A stretch of DNA of 64,000 nt from an uncultured Gammaproteobacteria bacterium (GTDB lineage: Bacteria > Pseudomonadota > Gammaproteobacteria > Steroidobacterales > CAZJFQ01). Location of the stretch: NCBI GenBank assembly GCA_964545335.1, contig CAZJFQ010000004.1, positions 5,306 to 69,305 of the forward strand, written 5' to 3'. This document shows positions 46,607 through 56,304 of the stretch, piece by piece. The position numbers and the translations under genes are program-made. Every line of letters starts with the position of its first letter. Position 1 is the stretch's first letter. The notes below the pieces were generated by a model. That model saw only the letters and a list, made by a program, of their open reading frames with translations, was not told the origin of the DNA and searched no databases.

Positions 46607-46810
46607 GTGATAGAAAAACCGATGGACAAAAAACTGCTCGATATTCTGGCTTGCCCGTTGTGCAAAGGACCGCTGCAGCACTGGTCCGCCGCAAACGAAC
46701 TCGTCTGTCGCGCAGATCGCCTTGCATTCCCGATTCGGGACGACGTTCCCGTGATGCTGGAAGAGGAAGCTCGTCAGCTCAGCACCGACGAACTCGCGGA
46801 ACAAGGTTGA
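46607..46810 (+). CDS. ycaR: Trm112/YcaR-family small protein (UPF0434)
   Basis: 67 aa at most. Contains [14 protein letters not shown]. The start may be ATG 46622. Confidence 0.8.
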
Positions 46811-46831
46811 TTGGCCGGTGACGGAATCAGT

Positions 46832-47593
46832 GTGAGCTTTCGCGTTGTCATCCCGGCGCGCTATGCTGCGACGCGTCTGCCCGGAAAACCGCTCGTGGAC
46901 ATCGGCGGTAAGCCGATGGTGCAATATGTATATGACCGAGCCGTCGAAAGCGGTGCACTGCACGTGATCGTCGCGACCGACGATGACCGGGTAATTGCAG
47001 CCTGCCGCAAATTCGGCGCCGAAAGTCGCATGACCTCAGAGGAGCATGCATCAGGGACGGATCGCGTAGCGGAGGTTTGCGTTTTGGAGGGGTGGAGCGC
47101 CGCGGACGTTGTTGTCAACCTGCAGGCCGACGAGCCCCTGATGCCGCCGAGCCTGATCCGTCAGGTAGCCGGGCTGCTCGAGGACTTCGAGGAATCCGAG
47201 ATGGCCACGCTGGCGTGTCCGGTGCAAACAATGGACGAGTATTCGAACCCTAATGTCGTAAAACTCGTACGGGATACCGAGGGGAATGCGTTGTATTTCA
47301 GTCGTGCCCCGATACCATTTGACCGCGATGCTCAGCGCTCATCGTCTGCCGGCCGTTGCCAGGATGCACTCAGGCATCTGGGTATTTACAGTTATCGTGT
47401 GGCCACCTTGCTGAAACTATCATCGGCAGCCCCATGCCGAATCGAAGAAATCGAGAAACTCGAACAGCTCAGGGCGCTCTGGAACGGAATAAGAATCCGG
47501 GTGGGGATGACAGAGGAGCCGCCCGGGCCGGGCGTTGACTCCGAGGACGATCTGAAAGAGGTTCGCCACATCATCGAGTCACGTTCCGGCTGA
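46832..47593 (+). CDS. kdsB: 3-deoxy-manno-octulosonate cytidylyltransferase (CMP-Kdo synthetase)
   Basis: Start placed at GTG 46832 (VSFRVVIPARYAATRLPGKPL, the usual KdsB N-terminus). The ORF opens at 46811. Confidence 0.92.
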   Translation: MSFRVVIPARYAATRLPGKPLVDIGGKPMVQYVYDRAVESGALHVIVATDDDRVIAACRKFGAESRMTSEEHASGTDRVAEVCVLEGWSAADVVVNLQADEPLMPPSLIRQVAGLLEDFEESEMATLACPVQTMDEYSNPNVVKLVRDTEGNALYFSRAPIPFDRDAQRSSSAGRCQDALRHLGIYSYRVATLLKLSSAAPCRIEEIEKLEQLRALWNGIRIRVGMTEEPPGPGVDSEDDLKEVRHIIESRSG

Positions 47594-47669
47594 TCCCTGC
47601 GTGGCATCAAAGTGTATCCGTGCGGCGCGACCGGTTGCCCGTTCCCCGGCCCACATTTTATCGGACCCG

Positions 47670-49067
47670 TCAGGTGCTTTTTGCGCGCATCAGATACAAA
47701 GTTCGCTCAGATTCGCTTACTCGTTCCTGATCGTGAATCTCAAATAAATGCGCGAATTCCTGCTCGAAACAATCTTGCCTGTATTCCGGAAAAATGTCTT
47801 GCCGGGTTGTCAGTAGTCTCTGTACCTGTGAATCACTCTTGGGTACGAACTCGATAATCAGCCAGCGGCAGATTTTGCTGAAGAACCCGGCGATTTTTTG
47901 CATGGGCAGATTGTTGGAAATCGCCAGATGATGAACGAGTGCCAGTGCCATTCCCAGTTCCGCAGGTCCTCGGTCAGCAAGTGACTGCCGTTCGTCGTTC
48001 GCCCAGCCGATACCCGGGCTCGGATTGGTGAGGTCCAGAATCAGTGGCAGGATGCCTGTTTCTTTCTTTGCACACACCTCGCGATAATTCTTTTCGACCG
48101 CAGCAGGATCGATGTCGAAAGCTATCGTCGGTATTCCCCGTTCACTGGCAACGCGACTGAACAGTCCCGTATTTGCGCCCATGTCCCATACCGTGCTCGG
48201 GGCCACAGTATCGAGAAATCTGCCGACAAGTTCCAACTTGTGCAGTACGGCAGCATCCGAATAGTTCGTGTCTTCATAATACTCGCCCCATTCGGTGCCG
48301 TGTGGGCGCCATTCCAGGCTGTTTACTACGTTCCCGAGGTTGTCGATGAGGCCAAGCAAAGCCATCCGGCTTATGCTCCGTTGGCTGGTATCGACCGGTT
48401 TGTCGGCATACCGCTTCTGGGCCTTGGCATGCAGGTGAACGTGTGACAGCAATGCAGGTCGCAAATAGGTACGTCCAGGGAGTAACGTGCTCGTCACATC
48501 GAGGGGAATGCCGTCAATATGAATCCGTGACAATTGATTCAGGCGGACGTCGACGTAACTTATCAACGCGAGCGGGGCGAGGAAATGCTGACAGAACTGG
48601 CGGTACGCGATCCAGGGCGCCCCCTCTTTATATTTTTCAAAAGACAGTGTGTCGATGAATACTGGCCGGCCGTCATGGAACTGAATGTTGTAGGCGCTGC
48701 AGTCTTTGAGTGATTGGCCCTTGTCCAGCGCTCTCTTTTGAATGTCGATGGTCGCCAGCGCTGCATCCTTGAGCTGACTGAAACTCCATTCATACGGATA
48801 CGAGATAAAGCGAACGGGTTGCGGCCGGATGATCTTGTAGGCTTCCGGACCCTGTGCCAGCTCTGCCGACATCTCTTCGTGCTCAATGAGCAAGCCGGCT
48901 CTTGTCAGCTCGCTGTATAGGCCACTGTCGATGAGTCGGTTGTAGTCTTCCCGGTAGGAATGGTTGACCTGTCGGTAGACAGACCCGTCATGACGAAAAA
49001 CGAAGCCACTCGGGTCTCGAAAGGATGCTGGGTCGATTCCGGAGGCGCTACGGTTGCTCGTCGCCAT
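47670..49067 (-). CDS. Two-domain protein: N-terminal FRDPSG-motif domain with kinase-like DxxxxN...ID pattern, fused to a C-terminal class I SAM methyltransferase
   Basis: 465 aa. MTase motif I is VWDMGANTGLF and motif II is IAFDID (residues about 290-320). The N-terminal 250 aa contain FRDPSGFVF and KDCSAYNIQFHDGRPVFIDTLSF. Confidence 0.75.
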   Translation of the reverse strand: MATSNRSASGIDPASFRDPSGFVFRHDGSVYRQVNHSYREDYNRLIDSGLYSELTRAGLLIEHEEMSAELAQGPEAYKIIRPQPVRFISYPYEWSFSQLKDAALATIDIQKRALDKGQSLKDCSAYNIQFHDGRPVFIDTLSFEKYKEGAPWIAYRQFCQHFLAPLALISYVDVRLNQLSRIHIDGIPLDVTSTLLPGRTYLRPALLSHVHLHAKAQKRYADKPVDTSQRSISRMALLGLIDNLGNVVNSLEWRPHGTEWGEYYEDTNYSDAAVLHKLELVGRFLDTVAPSTVWDMGANTGLFSRVASERGIPTIAFDIDPAAVEKNYREVCAKKETGILPLILDLTNPSPGIGWANDERQSLADRGPAELGMALALVHHLAISNNLPMQKIAGFFSKICRWLIIEFVPKSDSQVQRLLTTRQDIFPEYRQDCFEQEFAHLFEIHDQERVSESERTLYLMRAKST

Positions 49068-49302
49068 GCCCGTTATCTCGATCTCCGCCCCGGAACAGCA
49101 TGCGCGCGCTGCGCCAGCTGTTGATTAGGAAAACCTTCAATTTGCTCCAATACAGCTTTATGTAAACTATCGCGACGAGCACACCGGCAAACAACATTTG
49201 CAGAACAAGACTGCCGGTGCCGGGATCGATATAGGCGTAGCTACTTGTCGGTACTGCGAAACTGGCTATCGCTACCAGTAGCAGTCTTCCTTGTTGGATC
49301 AT
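49048..49302 (-). CDS. Small membrane protein with YIDPGTGS motif
   Basis: 84 aa. A signal-like segment, then AYIDPGTGS, then a TM helix LVLQMLFAGVLVAIVYI. The 3' end overlaps the start of the methyltransferase gene by 20 nt. Confidence 0.5.
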   Translation of the reverse strand: MIQQGRLLLVAIASFAVPTSSYAYIDPGTGSLVLQMLFAGVLVAIVYIKLYWSKLKVFLINSWRSARMLFRGGDRDNGHGDEQP

Positions 49303-49478
49303 AGTCTGCTTTCTACAGTCATGGGCAGCCGTGCGCGGCTACGAAGATCGGTCTTGTGAAGGGTCTGGTGCTCGTTAGAGTCCGCGAATCAAGTCTATGG
49401 GAATCTCCGGCACCTGTACAAGAACGCGTTCTCAAAATAACAAGCTGGCATCTGTCCGGAAGCCCTCTGATATGAGGC

Positions 49479-51263
49479 TCAGCGAGTCTGTTCGCCCCAC
49501 GTCAGCGGCTCCGGGTTATGCTGACGGGATCCGTAGGTCGGGATTCTGGATCCTGGATTCCCTGTCACGCGTGCCCGGGGAAACAATTCCACCAGTGGTC
49601 TCCCCGACATATCTTCGGCCACACGGTATCCGGCCAGCCATAAAATCGTTGGCACCACGTCATAGACGTTGGCTTCGAATGCGCCGTGGATTCCTGACGC
49701 AGTACGGCCGTCAATCGCCATAATGACTCCAGTAGGCGCTGCCGCATGGCCAAACGATCCGGGTCGGTACTGTTGAAAGCCATGGTCGGATACTACCAGT
49801 ACGGTAGCGTCGGCTCCCGCTGATTCGATCACCCGACGCAGACCGGCCATCGTGAATGCGTAGTACCGTGAGATTAGTTCGCTATACCGTTCCCGGTCGG
49901 GTACCGGCACGGGAACTTCAGGGTAAAGATTGGACAAGGTCATCGCGGCGTGGCTAACGGTGTCAATACCGCGAAAGTAAAAGACATAAAGACCATGATG
50001 CGCGTCCGAATCGACGAGAAATTCAGCCAACGCAAAGTACGTCTCATCGTGTGCCAGTGCCAACCGAAGCTGTTGCAGAATCTCCGACTCTCCCCCCAAT
50101 AGCTGCGATCCTATTTCTGATGCAGGAACGTCGACGAATGCGCGCAGCCGTTCCGCGGTGAAGTCATGCGTAAAGCGACGAAAATCCGCTACCTCGGCTT
50201 CGAGATTCGGCGGCCAGGTAATCTGCCGGGCAGAAACTGTGCCGGCACCGGGTCGTACAGGAAAATCCCACAGGTGGAAGCGGTCGCTGATCAATCGGCC
50301 ATTAACATGCGATGCTGGCCACGTGGCCCACCATCCCGCCAACGTTATCGGCCAGCGCTCATCATCAATGATCTCCCAGAAAGCTGGCCGGCCCAGATCA
50401 GTGTTGGCTACGGGCCGCAGTTCTGCGAAACCGGACCACCGCAACCAGTGTACCCACCAAAATGTCTCCTCGAATCTTGGATTGACTGCCAGTGCACGTT
50501 GCATCCCGGGAACATCCCATGCGTTGAAAAAAAGTATTTTATGTTCGCGTGGACTCATTCCCGTGGCAATGGTCGCCCATATTCTTGGCGAATCTGTTGG
50601 CAACAGGGTTGCGAGCGGGCCGACGTACCCGCGCTGAAGAAACCATTCAAAATCGTCATTGCCTTGATCCTGCTGCCACCGTTGCAGGGTTTCCCAGCCC
50701 AGGCCGTCAACCGCAAGCAGAAGGATCTTACGTGCCGGCGCATCATCAATGGGCACTGACCCGTTTGTCGTTGGCGGTGGCATATGCAGGCTGAGATTCC
50801 CTGATGAAATCGAAGCGATCAGTGCGGTCGACGTTGCGGCTAACGACCAGAGGAGAAATCGGCCAGGCCGTCCATCAGCCGGACACCCAAACGACAGCGA
50901 CAGACCGACGAGTAAAACGCTGAGACCTGCATAGCGACGCGTCAGGTCGAGCCCGACAGCAGGATTGAGGGCAGTGACGGCTACCAGGACAATAATTCCG
51001 CAAACAAGAACCACAAGTGCAGTCACGCCTACAGAGCGCGTTTGCCACCCGGTTAAACGATTCGTCAGAGTCACAGTCAGACGGAACAGTATGGCCACGA
51101 CCAATCCGACACTGAGGGACGCAAGTGCTATGACCATTGCGTCTTGCGAGAGTATCGGCAAGTGACTGGCCTCAAAGATCTCCAGCGCGACTTCCAGAGA
51201 TGCGACGCCACCGAGGGCCATAAATGCAATCTGTCTTGAGCGACGAAAAGAGTCCGGATGCAT
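49479..51263 (-). CDS. Polytopic membrane protein with C-terminal nucleotide pyrophosphatase/phosphodiesterase-type alkaline-phosphatase-superfamily domain
   Basis: About 594 aa from ATG 51263 (the ORF opens at TTG 51308), with about 5 N-terminal TM helices. NPP-like motifs are LLLAVDGLG, PTDSPRIWATIATGMSPREHKI (compare PTxTxPNHxxxxTGxxPxxHGI), GIDTVSHA and VLVVSDHGF. Confidence 0.8.
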   Translation of the reverse strand: MHPDSFRRSRQIAFMALGGVASLEVALEIFEASHLPILSQDAMVIALASLSVGLVVAILFRLTVTLTNRLTGWQTRSVGVTALVVLVCGIIVLVAVTALNPAVGLDLTRRYAGLSVLLVGLSLSFGCPADGRPGRFLLWSLAATSTALIASISSGNLSLHMPPPTTNGSVPIDDAPARKILLLAVDGLGWETLQRWQQDQGNDDFEWFLQRGYVGPLATLLPTDSPRIWATIATGMSPREHKILFFNAWDVPGMQRALAVNPRFEETFWWVHWLRWSGFAELRPVANTDLGRPAFWEIIDDERWPITLAGWWATWPASHVNGRLISDRFHLWDFPVRPGAGTVSARQITWPPNLEAEVADFRRFTHDFTAERLRAFVDVPASEIGSQLLGGESEILQQLRLALAHDETYFALAEFLVDSDAHHGLYVFYFRGIDTVSHAAMTLSNLYPEVPVPVPDRERYSELISRYYAFTMAGLRRVIESAGADATVLVVSDHGFQQYRPGSFGHAAAPTGVIMAIDGRTASGIHGAFEANVYDVVPTILWLAGYRVAEDMSGRPLVELFPRARVTGNPGSRIPTYGSRQHNPEPLTWGEQTR

Positions 51264-51387
51264 TGCGTAATTTACCAGCAGTCCAAATCCACGGATCCGA
51301 ACACTCAAGACAAGCGTTGGCGATCCGGTCGTTTACTTAGGTGCCCCTCAGGTTCGATTGCCTCGCAATATGCAACAGTCTGATGTT

Positions 51388-51409
51388 ATGTCAGGTCGTG
51401 ACCTGCCAT
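51388..51409. promoter_or_regulatory. 22-bp imperfect palindrome (candidate operator) in the divergent promoter region
   Basis: ATGtCAGGTC-GT-GACCTGcCAT. The core CAGGTC/GACCTG is perfect (51392-51405). TATACT lies 9 nt downstream, and the TTG start of the 543-aa gene is at 51444. Confidence 0.35.
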
Positions 51410-51443
51410 GGGCATAGTATACTTAGCGGATGCACTGTGAGGC

Positions 51444-53075
51444 TTGTCGAAAGTGCTGACCCGTCGAATTTTGCACCCGATCTTCTTTAGCTTCGCTCCG
51501 GTGCTTTTCCTATATTCGCAGAATGTCGGTCTGACCACCGGCTTCGGATTCCTGCGCCCGATTCTGGTCATTGTTACCGGCTCGTTATTACTGTGGCTGG
51601 CGTTGTCGTGGATGTACTCGAGCAAGGAGAAAGCAGGAGTACTGGTAACACTGTTTCTGGTTCTGTTTTTCTCTTATGGGCATATCAATACTGCGCTCGG
51701 TGATCATTCACGAAAGCTGTTCACCTTTGCCTTTGAGATCGGTGGTCTCTCAATCGGGCCGAGCAAGCTTCTCGCTCTGGTGTGGTCCTTGCTGCTCATT
51801 TTTGCCGCCGTGCGTCTTTGTTTCAGAAAAAAAAGCCTGGGAGGAATGACGCAATTTCTGAACATTTCCGGTGCAGTTCTGATCGCACTTCCCGTTTTGC
51901 AGGTTGCTGCTTTCGAAATCAGAAATATCGGTAGCGACACGGCACTGAGATTCACTGACGAGACACTGCAAAACGCACAGGGCGACGGTCATGTGAGGCC
52001 GGATATTTACTACATTATTTTGGATGGCTACGGCAGGGCAGACACTCTCAGCGAACTTTACTCGCACGATAACTTTCAGTTTCAGAAGCGTCTGGAAGAT
52101 AAGGGGTTCTACGTCGCGAATGCAAGCACGACGAATTACTCGCAGACGATTCTCTCGCTGACATCCTCATTGAATTTTCAGCACTTGCCGGAAATGGTTA
52201 GCGAACTGAATCTGGAACCGTCCAATCGACGACCAATAATGAATATGCTCGCCAACAACAGGATCGTCGAATTTTTGCGTGGCCGTGGGTATCAATTCGT
52301 TTTTTTTCCTTCGGGTTACTGGGGCGTTGATCTAAAGACTGCCGATGTCGTCCTGCGCGGGGGTTTTGGCCTGTCGGAATTCGAGATACTCCTGCTCAAC
52401 ACAACCGCTTTGACCGACATCCTGTACGGGCTGCGCCGTCTGCCCGACCTTGGGGGGATTCGCCTTTACGATCCGTGGGAAGACCACCGGCAACGGATGC
52501 TCTATATTCTCGAAAATCTGCCCGAAGTTACGGCTATGGAAGAGCCGACTTTTGTTCTGGCCCACGTGCTTGTGCCCCACCCACCATTCGTATTGGACGA
52601 AAACGGAGACAGCCGTAACCTGAGGGAAATCAACGCTCGCCGTTTTTTCAGCTACGCCGATGGCCTCAATTTAGATGTGGGCCTGGACCTGGAGGGGTAC
52701 AGAGAGGGTTACCGTGCACAACTCCGGTTCTTGAACAAGAGGCTTGAGCAAATCGTTGATCAGATAATATCCCGATCGGAGCAGCCGCCGGTGATCATTC
52801 TCCAGGGTGATCATGGACCGTCGTCATTGCTGGACGACAAACTTTCGAACCCGGATCCCGAGAACCTGAGGGAGCGGATGCGAATTTTCAATGCTTATTT
52901 CTTCCCCAAAGTAGATGACGGTACCCTGTACGACGAGATAACTCCGGTCAACACATTTCGCGTACTGTTGAACCAGTACTTCGATGCTAATTTCGAACTC
53001 GCAGGAGATGTCAGCTATTTTTCGACCTGGGAGGAGCCTTACACATTCATCGATGTAACGGAGACTGTTCGTTAG
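51444..53075 (+). CDS. Polytopic membrane protein with sulfatase/LTA-synthase-like alkaline-phosphatase-superfamily domain
   Basis: 543 aa with about 5 N-terminal TM helices. Contains IYYIILDGYGRAD (metal-binding Asp), a Ser/Thr-rich nucleophile region ANASTTNYSQTILSLTS, VLVPHPPF and VIILQGDHGPS. Confidence 0.8.
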   Translation: MSKVLTRRILHPIFFSFAPVLFLYSQNVGLTTGFGFLRPILVIVTGSLLLWLALSWMYSSKEKAGVLVTLFLVLFFSYGHINTALGDHSRKLFTFAFEIGGLSIGPSKLLALVWSLLLIFAAVRLCFRKKSLGGMTQFLNISGAVLIALPVLQVAAFEIRNIGSDTALRFTDETLQNAQGDGHVRPDIYYIILDGYGRADTLSELYSHDNFQFQKRLEDKGFYVANASTTNYSQTILSLTSSLNFQHLPEMVSELNLEPSNRRPIMNMLANNRIVEFLRGRGYQFVFFPSGYWGVDLKTADVVLRGGFGLSEFEILLLNTTALTDILYGLRRLPDLGGIRLYDPWEDHRQRMLYILENLPEVTAMEEPTFVLAHVLVPHPPFVLDENGDSRNLREINARRFFSYADGLNLDVGLDLEGYREGYRAQLRFLNKRLEQIVDQIISRSEQPPVIILQGDHGPSSLLDDKLSNPDPENLRERMRIFNAYFFPKVDDGTLYDEITPVNTFRVLLNQYFDANFELAGDVSYFSTWEEPYTFIDVTETVR

Positions 53076-53374
53076 ACGGATATTCCCCGGCAGACCGACC
53101 AGCCAGCGGACCGCCGCACCGGCACGACCGGCACCACTTCGTGTAGAATCGAGGTCGACGAAGCGGTCAGGCGTTCGCTGGAAATCGAGAACGCAACGAT
53201 TCACTGGATGCCCTCCGGGAAGTACAATCTCGCTTCTTCGTCAGGCAAAAAGCGCCCGGACAGGGTGCCCTAGTCTGTATGTGAGAGCGAAGAAAACCCA
53301 GTAACATGCCGGATGCAAAACTGCGGAGCATTAGGCAGACATAGACAATTCTGGTCGCGGAGTGTGAAGGAAAG

Positions 53375-53851
53375 ATGAAGGTTCTTTTTGTCTGTATGGG
53401 GAACATCTGCCGGTCGCCGACCGCTGAGGCGGCATTCCGACGTCTGGCAGAACAGGAAGCGCGACATCTGGACTTGCTCATCGATTCGGCCGGGACTCAC
53501 GCATACCATTCCGGCGCGCCTCCGGATCGGCGTGCCCAGTCGGCAGCTTTGCTTCGTGGAATCGACCTCAGCCCGATTCGCGCCCGACAGGTCTGCAAAG
53601 AGGATTTTGAGCGATTCGACCTTATTCTTGCCATGGATCGTCACAACCATGAGTTGCTTAGTGACCAGAAACCAGCCGGAGTCGCCTGCGAGATCCGTTT
53701 GTTCATGGAATACGCGCAAAACCCCACGGGTGAAAACGTCCCGGATCCGTACTACGGTGGCGCTAACGGATTTGAACGCGTCCTCGACATGATTGAGGAC
53801 GCGTCACGTGGATTGCTGTCGCAGTTGAAGGAGTCGCGCCGCAGAGCGTGA
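53375..53851 (+). CDS. Low-molecular-weight protein-tyrosine phosphatase
   Basis: 158 aa. P-loop VLFVCMGNICRSPTAE and the DPYY motif. Confidence 0.9.
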   Translation: MKVLFVCMGNICRSPTAEAAFRRLAEQEARHLDLLIDSAGTHAYHSGAPPDRRAQSAALLRGIDLSPIRARQVCKEDFERFDLILAMDRHNHELLSDQKPAGVACEIRLFMEYAQNPTGENVPDPYYGGANGFERVLDMIEDASRGLLSQLKESRRRA

Positions 53852-53853
53852 GA

Positions 53854-56304
53854 TCAGGCTCTCTTTTTCGGCGGCTGTGGTCGGCTCGGCCCGGCCGAAT
53901 ACACCACGTACTTCTTTTTCGACTCAGGTTGTTGCCCGATCGCGGTCGGCGCCGCGTGTTGAGCAGTCACGGGTGCCGGGCTCTTGGCTTGTTCAGGTTG
54001 CGGTGAGTCTGCCGGTACATCGGCCGGTCCGGTGGGCATTTCCGCTTGTGGAGACGACTCTTTCTTGGGCGCCGATTTTGCTACCGGTTGTGATGCGGCT
54101 GGACGGGATTTATCCGGTTGCGTCGATTGAACCGTTGCCGCGGCCGTATCCGTGCTTACCGAACCCTTCATGACAGAACGTTCCTCGACCGGCTTTTCCG
54201 CTGGTGATTTTTTGTCCGCAGCCGGGTGCGATCTACTTCTGGTCGATCGGGTTCGAGGTTTCCTTGCGGCCGGCGTGCTGTCAGGATTCTTGGCCGGTTC
54301 GCGACCGCCGGCCGACGCCGACTTGTCGCTTCGCGGGCCGCGCGCAGTTTCTTCGCTGTCCTTCGGGCGCGGCCGCTTCCTGCGGCGCTGACCACCGCCG
54401 CTACTGCTACCGCTGGCACCGGAGCCGCCATCAGCCTGCCGCGATCCGCCACCCGACCGTGAGTCGGATCGACTGCCGCGACTGCTGTCACCGCGGCGGG
54501 CCGGACCACGCCCGCGTTGGGTGCTACGAGCCTGGCGTTGCGACCGATTTGTTCGACGTTGGCGCTGCGGCGGTCCACGGTGCTGCTGAGTTGACGGTTG
54601 TTTCCTGGCGCCGATGCCCAGCCAGCTTCGAATCCTGGCCCAGAGACTTGTCCGCGCAGTACGGCGTTTGCGGCTCTTCGAGGGTTCGGGTGCCGGTCGT
54701 TCCGGAACGATCGTGGGCACCGCTGCTTCCTCTGGCGATCCCTGTTGAGACAAGCCCAGCATGGGATCAATACCGGTATCCTCCGGTAAAGCGATCGCGT
54801 AGCTGGCGGCCGTATACTCAGGCAACAGCGTTTCATCATCGCGGACACGGCGGATACTGAAATTCGGAGTTTCCAGCGCCGGGCTTGGTATAACGACCAG
54901 CCGGATCTCATTACGCTGTTCGATATTATTGATCCAATCCCGTTTTTCATTCACCAGGTAGGTAGCTACTTCAACGGGCAACTGGGCGACGACCCGTGCA
55001 GTGCGCTCCTTGCGGGCCTCTTCACCAATAAGTCTCAATACAGCGAGCGCAAGAGATTCGATATCGCGGATGCTGCCCTGGCCGTTACAGCGCGGACACA
55101 CGATATGGCTGGATTCACCAAGTGAAGGCCGAAGTCGCTGACGTGACATCTCGAGGAGACCAAACCGGGAGATACGGGCAAACTGCACGCGGGCCCGGTC
55201 CATGCGAACAGCTTCACGCAACCGGTTCTCGACTTCCCGCTGATTGCGCGGCGGTCCCATGTCGATAAAGTCGATGACGATCAGTCCGCCGACGTCGCGG
55301 ATTCTCAATTGCCTGGCAACTTCATCCGCGGCTTCCAGATTCGTTTGCAACGCCGTCGCTTCGATATCCTGGCCTTTGGTGGCGCGCGCCGAATTGATGT
55401 CGATCGATACCAATGCTTCAGTGTGATCGATGACGACGCTACCGCCGGACGGCAGCGTCACTTTGTGGGCAAAGGCTGAATGAATCTGACTCTCGATCTG
55501 GAAACGCGTAAACAGGGGAACATCGTCCTCATAGCGTTTTAGTTTGCGTGAGTTGTGCGGCATGACCTGTTCGATGAATTGACTCGCCTCCTGGTGGACG
55601 TCTTTGTCATCAATCAGTATTTCGCCCACCTCATTGGTCAGATAGTCCCTGAGGGCACGAATGATCGCGTTGCTTTCCTGATAGATGAGAAACGGCGCGT
55701 CCCGTTGCTCGGTGGCTTGTCGTATGGATTTCCATATGCTGGCCAGGTAATCCAGATCCCATTGCAGTTCCTCGGCCGATCGTTCGACGCCGGCGGTCCG
55801 GACAATGGCACCCATACCGCGGGGAATGTTGAGCTCGCGAAGTGCGTCCCGGACCTCGTCGCGATCAGGCCCGGTAATACGCCGCGACACGCCACCGGCA
55901 CGCGGATTATTCGGCATCAGCACAAGGAACCGGCCGGCCAGAGCTACAAATGTAGTCAAGGCCGCGCCCTTACGTCCCCGTTCTTCTTTCTCGACCTGGA
56001 TGATCAATTCCTGACCTTCCTCGATAACCTTGCGGATATCGACTCGGACGCCCGGTTCGGGCGGTGCCGTGAAATACTCCCGGGCGATTTCCTTCAGCGG
56101 CAGGAAGCCGTGGCGTGTGGAGCCGAAATCGACAAAGGCGGCCTCGAGACTGGGCTCGATGCGTGTTATCCGGCCTTTGTAAATGTTGGCCTTTTTGTTT
56201 TCCCGCGAGGGAACTTCGATATCAAGGTCGTAAAGTTTCTGGCCGTCCACCATGGCCACTCGCAACTCTTCCGGCTGAGTTGCGTTTACCAGCATTCTTT
56301 TCAT
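53854..56304 (-). CDS. rne: Ribonuclease E
   Basis: 816 aa. Begins [30 protein letters not shown], with S1 and catalytic domains and the Zn-link CPRCNGQG, followed by an Arg/Ser/Gly/Pro-rich disordered C-terminal half. Confidence 0.95.

Follow-up and report, generated by a model that had tools for sequence, protein, structure and literature searches.

The closest described relatives of the system considered here are the products of noeA and noeB, host-range nodulation genes of Sinorhizobium meliloti that belong to the nod-box n5 operon (Ardourel et al. 1995, according to the passages on these genes in PMC9048898 and PMC4053727). On pSymA, the region reads nodL, an unnamed 71-amino-acid (aa) open reading frame (ORF), noeA and noeB. 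The trio was also described bioinformatically, as Lani_1193, Lani_1194 and Lani_1195 of Legionella anisa, in a 2022 pan-kinome survey (PMC9758233). According to that survey, Lani_1194 contains a kinase-like domain in which an arginine replaces K72 and the equivalents of D166, N171 and D184 are conserved, and a methyltransferase is fused to this domain in 94% of ~2000 homologues (PMC9758233). Lani_1193 is present in 65% and Lani_1195 in 38% of 816 neighbourhoods; SignalP6 assigns a Sec signal peptide at a probability of 0.5-0.74 to about half of the Lani_1193 homologues, and Lani_1195 matches EptA (5FGN) in HHpred at 3.2e-27 (PMC9758233). Below, we describe a 5.8-kb cassette in an uncultured gammaproteobacterium (contig CAZJFQ010000004.1), the core of which is a further copy of this widespread, already described noeA/noeB-type module. 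The stretch analysed, hereafter the window, comprises 64,000 nucleotides (nt), and all coordinates are window positions.

The cassette lies between kdsB and a low-molecular-weight phosphotyrosine phosphatase (LMW-PTP) gene and encodes a 465-aa kinase-methyltransferase fusion, an 84-aa membrane peptide, an NPP-type membrane protein and a 543-aa membrane enzyme of the alkaline-phosphatase (AP) fold. The initial annotation did not recognise this combination as a described system; the core trio is, in fact, homologous to the small ORF, noeA and noeB, and corresponds to the Lani_1193/1194/1195 neighbourhood (PMC9758233). A tblastn search of plasmids established the connection to noeA, which it placed on 57 Sinorhizobium plasmids. 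In BLASTP, the 465-aa protein aligns with S. meliloti NoeA at 34% identity over residues 1-458 of 465 (98% of its length; E 3e-79), and the 71-aa ORF upstream of noeA, in which AHA is followed by YLDPGTGS, matches the 84-aa peptide with E 5e-10. The match to NoeB is partial, with 27% identity over 130 aa (BLASTP E 7e-7) and an hhalign probability of 79% (E 1.6e-5) over 256 columns that span the metal-binding aspartate, the nucleophile and GDHG; this comparison points to the same fold and the same partner position, short of orthology. The S. meliloti order of small ORF, noeA and noeB is the usual order of the family, and its small ORF and noeA share 23 nt, against an overlap of exactly 20 nt between the 3' end of the peptide gene and the start of the fusion gene in the window. 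The two loci differ in that the window has an inverted NoeB-like gene and an added NPP-type gene and lacks nodL and a nod box. Furthermore, identity to NoeA is only 34%, and the window protein belongs to a far more conserved clade (58-69% identity across phyla). The likeness to the Lani trio, drawn from published descriptions and not from direct sequence comparison, comprises a kinase-like domain with the R/D/N/D residues joined to a class I methyltransferase, small-protein and AP-fold neighbours, and spread into Archaea. The survey differs in that it is without the Y[IL]DPG[TS]GS signature of the peptide and proposes effector roles in Legionella (PMC9758233).

Taken as a whole, the locus is best explained as an acquired NoeA/NoeB-type module with a role in the phospho-decoration of surface or secreted glycans or lipids, a reading that we hold with about even confidence. 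The four ORFs, the 20-nt overlap and the 176-nt gap of the initial annotation agree with the ORF list and translations. The layout is as follows; residues of the NPP-type protein are given in 609-aa numbering throughout.

46811..47593, plus strand: kdsB, host gene of the left flank (PF02348, E 2.5e-56; TIGR00466, E 9.3e-83)
47594..47669, no strand: left junction, 76 nt between the convergent ends of kdsB and the kinase-methyltransferase gene (ORF coordinates)
47670..49067, minus strand: NoeA/Lani_1194-type fusion of a kinase-like domain and a class I methyltransferase, 465 aa (NoeA homology)
47673..48290, minus strand: class I S-adenosylmethionine (SAM)-dependent methyltransferase domain, predicted at about residues 260-465 (Foldseek, weak PF13489)
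48318..49025, minus strand: protein-kinase-like domain, predicted at about residues 15-250 (AF2 model, Foldseek)
49048..49302, minus strand: small membrane peptide, 84 aa (sequence, homologues, two hydrophobic segments)
49210..49233, minus strand: YIDPGTGS codons, residues 24-31 of the peptide (motif census of homologues)
49303..49478, no strand: 176-nt spacer between the NPP gene and the small-peptide gene (ORF coordinates)
49479..51308, minus strand: membrane-anchored NPP-type AP-superfamily protein (PF01663), 594 aa from an ATG at 51263 or 609 aa from a TTG at 51308
51309..51443, no strand: divergent intergenic region between the NPP gene and the NoeB-like gene (ORF coordinates)
51444..53075, plus strand: NoeB/Lani_1195-like membrane AP-fold enzyme, 543 aa (NoeB hhalign and BLASTP, PF00884 in homologues)
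53076..53374, no strand: right junction, 299 nt (ORF coordinates)
53375..53851, plus strand: LMW-PTP gene, host gene of the right flank (PF01451, E 1.2e-39)

The kinase-methyltransferase fusion

The 465-aa protein was initially annotated as a two-domain methyltransferase. The methyltransferase domain stands, whereas the N-terminal domain, previously described only as unusual, is protein-kinase-like according to its modelled fold. An AlphaFold (AF2) model of residues 1-252 has a pLDDT of 81.8, and its top 50 Foldseek matches in the PDB are all kinases, including PknG (2.8e-4), CK2, RioK1 and AmiN, at modest values (E from 2.8e-4 upward, TM-scores of 0.31-0.47). Residues R32, D122, N127 and D139 are invariant in alignments of 27 and 15 sequences, and the motifs LKDCSAYN and FIDTLSF look like the kinase catalytic loop and the DFG aspartate, respectively. 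NoeA retains all four residues, with LSDATAYN and FIDHLS at these positions. Based on the published assignment (PMC9758233) and the motif spacing, R32, D122, N127 and D139 would be the equivalents of PKA K72, D166, N171 and D184. The survey had arrived at a kinase-like domain by its own route (PMC9758233). The domain matched no family in Pfam or NCBIfam and nothing in a profile search against PDB chains, and single-sequence searches of the four cassette proteins against PDB chains returned nothing useful. Because the N-terminal domain is kinase-like, the enzyme is read as a kinase-methyltransferase fusion, which alters the mechanistic picture. It has zero hydrophobic or transmembrane segments and is predicted to be cytoplasmic and soluble.

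The fusion has more than 8000 relatives at 62-69% identity, and a scan with one genome per species found at least 598 loci encoding a kinase-methyltransferase with 56-64% identity. An exact-sequence look-up of the window protein itself gave no record. Carriers include Chloroflexi, Aminicenantes, Planctomycetota, Clostridia, Actinomycetota, Parcubacteria, Chlamydiota and three archaeal metagenome-assembled genomes (MAGs). Cultured carriers of the conserved clade are Gemmatirosa kalamazoonensis and Singulisphaera acidiphila DSM 18658, in which plasmid pSINAC01 encodes a kinase-methyltransferase 57.9% identical to the window protein. A profile of the N-terminal domain retrieves at least 4648 clusters at 50% identity; the best 150 of these 4648 relatives are mostly ~455-470 aa long with an equal match span, and the shorter ones are probably fragments. 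The identity between kinase-methyltransferases of different phyla or domains (56-69%) is about that between KdsB of the host and its nearest class-level relatives (57-69%). In comparison with the strongly constrained kinase-methyltransferase, the partner AP-fold protein averages only 35% identity.

The methyltransferase domain matches PF13489 weakly, below the cut-off. Foldseek returned 180 PDB matches at E <= 1e-3; the 50 listed all have the class I SAM-methyltransferase fold and include AzeJ, Ecm18, the methyltransferase domain of WbdD and ChlM at 1e-5 to 1e-4. Motif I (WDxGANxG) is invariant, and strand 4 is followed by an invariant N-P-S and then a nearly invariant proline (NPSP). At the corresponding site, amino-methyltransferases carry (D/N)PP(Y/F).

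Among pairs of a kinase and a methyltransferase, only WbdD of E. coli O9a (PDB 4azs) has been characterised as acting on a glycan; it phosphorylates a sugar hydroxyl, and the resulting phosphate is then methylated by the same protein (PMC3482155). It likewise combines a kinase fold and a class I methyltransferase in one chain, and the two methyltransferase domains match in Foldseek at 2.1e-5. The order of its domains, however, is methyltransferase-kinase-coiled-coil in 708 aa, as opposed to kinase-methyltransferase in 465 aa with no C-terminal extension; identity is ~13%, and WbdD is without a small-peptide or AP-fold partner. Membership in the WbdD family was rejected on domain order and length, and WbdD is treated here as an analogue. 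It nevertheless inspires an alternative that we consider unlikely, in which the fusion would act in the cytoplasm as a chain terminator that places methyl phosphate on the non-reducing end of a polyprenol-linked glycan and thereby controls chain length and export, and the AP-fold enzymes would be unrelated decorators travelling along. Besides the WbdD precedent and the structural match to its methyltransferase domain, ABC-transporter ATPase genes in 9 related loci and the glycan-synthesis genes common there speak for such a role. The reversed domain order, the smaller size and the lack of a coiled-coil ruler speak against it, as does the mean identity of 58% across organisms with very different glycans, which makes a polymer-specific terminator seem unlikely. 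A terminator would also not account for why the fusion is tightly linked to, and co-evolves with, the AP-fold gene and the peptide.

Conservation of the module and its membrane partners

The module is conserved in gene order and in its stop/start codon overlaps across loci that span dozens of phyla, Archaea included. The peptide gene lies directly upstream of the kinase-methyltransferase gene, on the same strand, in at least 67 of 77 loci, and the two genes in the window are, judging from their arrangement, translationally coupled. Of 73 loci, 41 have an AP-fold gene directly downstream and 50 have one within 5 kb. In the window, the 543-aa gene departs from this usual site directly downstream on the same strand: it lies on the opposite strand, 2.4 kb from the kinase-methyltransferase gene and beyond the NPP gene. 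Nevertheless, the pairwise identities of the kinase-methyltransferase and the AP-fold protein are correlated (r = 0.67, Mantel p = 0.001), and a single foreign contig (L001) holds the nearest relative of both window proteins. The inverted gene is therefore assigned to the module, and the sequence comparisons indicate that the kinase-methyltransferase and the AP-fold enzyme co-evolve.

Several variations on this arrangement were observed. In four loci (L045, L032, L028 and L037), two or three tandem NoeB-like AP-fold paralogues stand behind the kinase-methyltransferase; the gain of extra AP enzymes by a module, like the NPP gene in the window, may be recurrent. In loci without the usual AP-fold type, a gene of another PF00884 subfamily often follows, and in single cases one for a metallophosphoesterase or a KpsC/S-like protein. 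In L040 (5274-6878), L070 and L022, the gene behind the kinase-methyltransferase contains a KpsC/KpsS-like (Capsule_synth) domain (E 1.2e-8). KpsC/KpsS-like enzymes build glycan on a phosphatidylglycerol-type lipid, and these neighbours may hint at the kind of substrate. In seven Anaerolineae-type loci (L034 1457-2479, L036, L053, L057, L060, L071 and L084), the downstream gene is not of the AP fold; it encodes a protein of ~330 aa with two hydrophobic segments, no Pfam match and a very conserved C-terminal domain (TYVLGDDLYDESFSID...WLFDKNDIKTATKVLM). Recurrent neighbours of the module are epimerases/dehydratases (17 loci), glycosyltransferases, nucleotidyltransferases, Wzx-like flippases and ABC ATPases (9 loci). 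An anti-phage defence role was considered and rejected: PADLOC found no defence-system model, returning only a chance-level mad2 match (E 0.0023). No phage carriage was found.

The 84-aa peptide consists of a Sec-type signal peptide (residues 1-23, ending in SYA), the YIDPGTGS motif, one transmembrane helix and a basic tail. Searches of Pfam and NCBIfam gave no family for it. The motif Y[ILV]D[PA]G[TS]GS is present in 70 of the 75 listed homologues, usually right behind an AxA-type site, and some Chloroflexi homologues keep the motif in the absence of a signal peptide. Judging from the signal peptide and the positive-inside rule, the peptide is probably exported and cleaved, with YIDPGTGS at the outer membrane face and the basic tail in the cytoplasm. 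On pSINAC01 of S. acidiphila DSM 18658 (L106, 5796-5978), a 60-aa ORF containing ...LAYLDPGSGS... and a transmembrane helix lies just upstream of the NoeA-like gene. This ORF is missing from the feature table of the record and its S. meliloti counterpart is annotated merely as a hypothetical protein, so the peptide gene seems often to be missed or left unnamed. The extreme conservation of the motif, with threonine or serine at fixed positions, and the invariable co-occurrence of the peptide with the enzymes would also suit a scheme in which the peptide is itself the substrate: the exposed YIDPGTGS would receive a phospho-form on Thr/Ser from the AP-fold enzyme, as in PptA and pilin, for a signalling or structural role. 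We regard this as distinctly improbable, since the cytoplasmic kinase-methyltransferase could not reach the exported N-terminus, the peptide is kept in loci that have no AP-fold gene, and precedent is lacking.

The 543-aa enzyme itself has no Pfam or NCBIfam match, and 32 of 36 homologues match PF00884. It carries ILDGYGRAD at 192, PHPPF at 378 and GDHGPS at 455, and among its homologues D194, H379 and D456 are invariant, H457 is nearly invariant and residue 235 is threonine in 33 of 36 members and serine in 3 of 36. The formylglycine motif [CS]x[PA]xR occurs nowhere in the protein, and such a string is found in only 1 of 36 homologues. Given the T/S nucleophile position, the conserved AP residues and the absence of a formylglycine motif, the enzyme is assigned to the EptA/LtaS type and not to the sulfatases; the identity of a true sulfatase was rejected, as the C/S-x-P-x-R motif is absent. 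Of the sulfatase/LTA-synthase-like core proposed initially, the transferase-type site of EptA and LtaS was thus retained and the sulfatase type discarded. The catalytic domain is predicted to be exoplasmic, with a threonine nucleophile. The protein is 36.7% identical over 98% of its length to a Singulisphaera 'LTA synthase family protein' that adjoins a kinase-methyltransferase homologue, and profile searches against the PDB gave marginal sulfatase and EptA matches (EptA soluble domain 4kav, E 0.095). It resembles EptA/MCR-1, LtaS, OpgB and BcsG in its anchor of ~5 transmembrane helices, exoplasmic AP fold, metal-binding aspartate, threonine nucleophile and DH pair; it differs from them in that sequence similarity is marginal and none of them needs a kinase-methyltransferase.

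The NPP-type protein matches PF01663 (E 4.6e-16, 59.8 bits against a cut-off of 23) and carries AVDGLG at 199, PTDSPRIWATIATG... at 237, PTDS...TG and SDHGF at 507; its nucleophile is aligned to the known NPP threonine in our own reading. It and the 543-aa protein each have five hydrophobic segments within the first ~170 residues. The initial view of both as membrane enzymes of the AP superfamily with about five transmembrane helices is borne out by these segments, by the PF01663 match and by PF00884 in the homologues, and all the motifs that it had quoted are present. As a four-gene unit, by contrast, the cassette did not hold up, since only one locus (L051) out of 83 has an NPP relative near the module; a place for the NPP gene in the conserved module was ruled out on this count, and the gene is a lineage-specific addition. 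The plasmid collection yielded just two remote haloarchaeal matches to the NPP protein.

PF01663 and PF00884 are mostly hydrolase families, and the two membrane proteins could conceivably be exoplasmic hydrolases that free phosphate or sulfate for nutrient scavenging, with the methyltransferase gene unrelated to them. This is very improbable: the formylglycine motif is absent, a five-helix anchor is typical of transferases, the AP-fold enzyme keeps its gene order and co-evolves with the kinase-methyltransferase and the peptide, and the neighbours in related loci have functions in glycan synthesis and not in the Pho or Cys regulons.

Insertion site and host flanks

The synteny comparison was drawn from kdsB homologues and contig look-ups. 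In the nearest kdsB relatives (L101 and L102, 68% identity) and in a Steroidobacteraceae MAG (L103), kdsB and the LMW-PTP gene are directly adjacent, in the order comEC-exbBD-msbA-lpxK-trm112-kdsB-PTP-rne, with a gap of 68-307 nt. The cassette is therefore read as an insertion, and the initial annotation, which had named this adjacency and noted the 5.8 kb in between, was right on both points. A 98%-identical relative from another metagenome (L087/L088) has the cassette at the identical site, NPP gene included. The identity of KdsB homologues falls in steps from 100% to 69% to 57%, which marks the host as one with few close relatives; a metagenome scan with kdsB for island-free relatives returned only relatives of at most 51% identity, and one further contig (L104) has a different right flank and is uninformative on the insertion. 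No direct or inverted repeat beyond chance-size matches marks the ends of the island, and the ORF list of the window shows neither an integrase nor a tRNA gene.

No 5.8-kb window of the 64 kb is poorer in G+C than the cassette (53.9%; mean 56.5%, standard deviation 1.0), and no 1.6-kb window is poorer than the 543-aa gene (50.8%). In 500-nt windows at 51.25-53.25 kb, G+C is 48.8-54.8%, with none below 48.8%. The low G+C suspected initially is thus real in rank, although the suggested 42% was too low. G+C at third codon positions (GC3) is 57-61% in the four cassette genes and lies inside the host range of 56-69%, so the compositional deviation is mild, and strong compositional foreignness was ruled out on the same count. 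Considering its identity and foreign origin together, we conclude with high confidence that the 5.8-kb interval is a horizontally acquired island in the kdsB/LMW-PTP spacer.

The upstream flank consists of msbA, lpxK, a Trm112-like ORF and kdsB, and the downstream flank of the LMW-PTP gene and rne. This setting had suggested a link to lipid A and 3-deoxy-D-manno-octulosonic acid (Kdo), which we do not uphold, as the cassette landed in the kdsB/PTP spacer and the module is common in groups that are mostly not expected to make lipopolysaccharide (LPS). A module specific to LPS, adding a phospho-substituent to lipid A or to Kdo/core, is accordingly improbable. Its position next to msbA-lpxK-kdsB would suit such a role, as would the modification of lipid A by EptA-type enzymes and the published HHpred match between Lani_1195 and EptA. 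The neighbourhood, however, is an insertion site and not an operon, as relatives hold the same host genes in the absence of the cassette, and the cassette genes are convergent with kdsB. In addition, the module is common in Chloroflexi, Clostridia, Actinomycetota, Parcubacteria and methanogen MAGs, groups that for the most part are not expected to make LPS. The adjoining lipid A/Kdo genes are probably coincidental to the cassette.

Some further observations concern the flanks and spacers. The 67-aa Trm112-like ORF (46607-46810, plus strand), between lpxK and kdsB, has counterparts in relatives that match PF03966 (Trm112p-like) and is part of the conserved host gene order. Inside rne (minus strand), part of the 3' half (54000-54750) reaches 65-69% G+C and has a strongly negative AT skew, which probably reflects the low-complexity C-terminal part of RNase E; this protein has 816 aa in the window and 1002 aa in the Steroidobacteraceae MAG. 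The 176-nt spacer contains no Rfam match and no promoter-like site above chance. The divergent intergenic region has a single sigma-70-like match (51394-51367, minus strand), a count not above chance. Promoter and terminator counts were at shuffle level, and no regulatory RNA was matched in Rfam.

Possible functions of the module

For the preferred reading of an acquired phospho-decoration module, we tentatively propose a mechanism that is divided between two compartments, which is possible, if on balance doubtful. Firstly, at the inner face, the kinase domain would phosphorylate a membrane-bound substrate and the methyltransferase would then methylate the product, with WbdD as precedent. Secondly, at the outer face, the AP-fold enzyme or enzymes would move or trim the phospho-group via a phospho-threonine intermediate, comparable to EptA, LtaS, OpgB and BcsG. 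Finally, the small peptide would tether the soluble fusion to the membrane and couple both sides, comparable to BcsF in BcsEFG. The BcsE-BcsF-BcsG system for phosphoethanolamine-cellulose likewise groups the genes of a cytoplasmic protein, a small membrane protein with a single pass and an AP-fold transferase of the membrane; BcsE and BcsF serve here as an architectural analogue only, with no homology to the window proteins. The glycan-biosynthesis genes around homologous modules are suggestive of a role in surface decoration, and so are the other PF00884 subfamilies or metallophosphoesterase that replace the usual downstream partner and the host-range function of noeA and noeB. The glycan part of the decoration role proposed in the initial annotation, which had named LPS or a glycan, thus has support from the glycan-synthesis neighbours, while the link to lipid A and Kdo is weak.

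Several points weigh against this reading. The literature assigns no substrate, donor or product to any family member. In the kinase of the Lani_1194 type, an arginine replaces the beta-3 lysine and the ion-pair glutamate was not identified (PMC9758233). In the methyltransferase, NPSP at the site of the (D/N)PP(Y/F) motif could mean N-methylation instead of phosphate methylation. About one-third of the loci are without an AP-fold gene within 5 kb, so the kinase-methyltransferase may need no partner but the peptide. Since the AP-fold gene of the window stands on the opposite strand, its co-expression with the other genes is not guaranteed. In S. meliloti, a nodL mutation has polar effects on noeA and noeB; the loss of O-acetylation was the only Nod-factor change detected in the mutant, so the target is probably not the main Nod factor.

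NPSP would leave room for the N-methylation of an ethanolamine-type head group, which enters into another account of the trio, one that also seems unlikely to us. Here, the trio would make its own lipid-linked donor and install an uncatalogued surface phospho-form, either methyl phosphate or an N-methylated phosphoethanolamine/phosphocholine-like group. The kinase would re-phosphorylate the lipid left by the transferase, comparable to the recycling of diacylglycerol by DgkA and DgkB after EptA and LtaS, and the methyltransferase would then methylate the head group, after which the AP-fold enzyme would transfer the methylated phospho-group to an extracellular acceptor, the YLDPGTGS peptide joining the two halves. 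If true, a self-contained donor, for which only ATP, SAM and a common lipid would be needed, would account for the ~58% identity of the kinase-methyltransferase across dozens of phyla and both prokaryotic domains and for the free transfer of the module.

Whichever chemistry applies, the instance in the window leaves existing knowledge of the family unchanged; what the locus adds is a clean island insertion, the peptide signature, the co-evolution result and an extra NPP enzyme. The family itself extends from rhizobia and Legionella to Chloroflexi, candidate phyla radiation bacteria and methanogens. As host-range nodulation genes, noeA and noeB go back to 1995, and S. meliloti, Singulisphaera acidiphila DSM 18658 and Gemmatirosa kalamazoonensis offer the module for study in culture. 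The product, once solved, could disclose a new kind of decoration of surfaces or signal molecules, of relevance to symbiosis, Legionella and many uncultured lineages.

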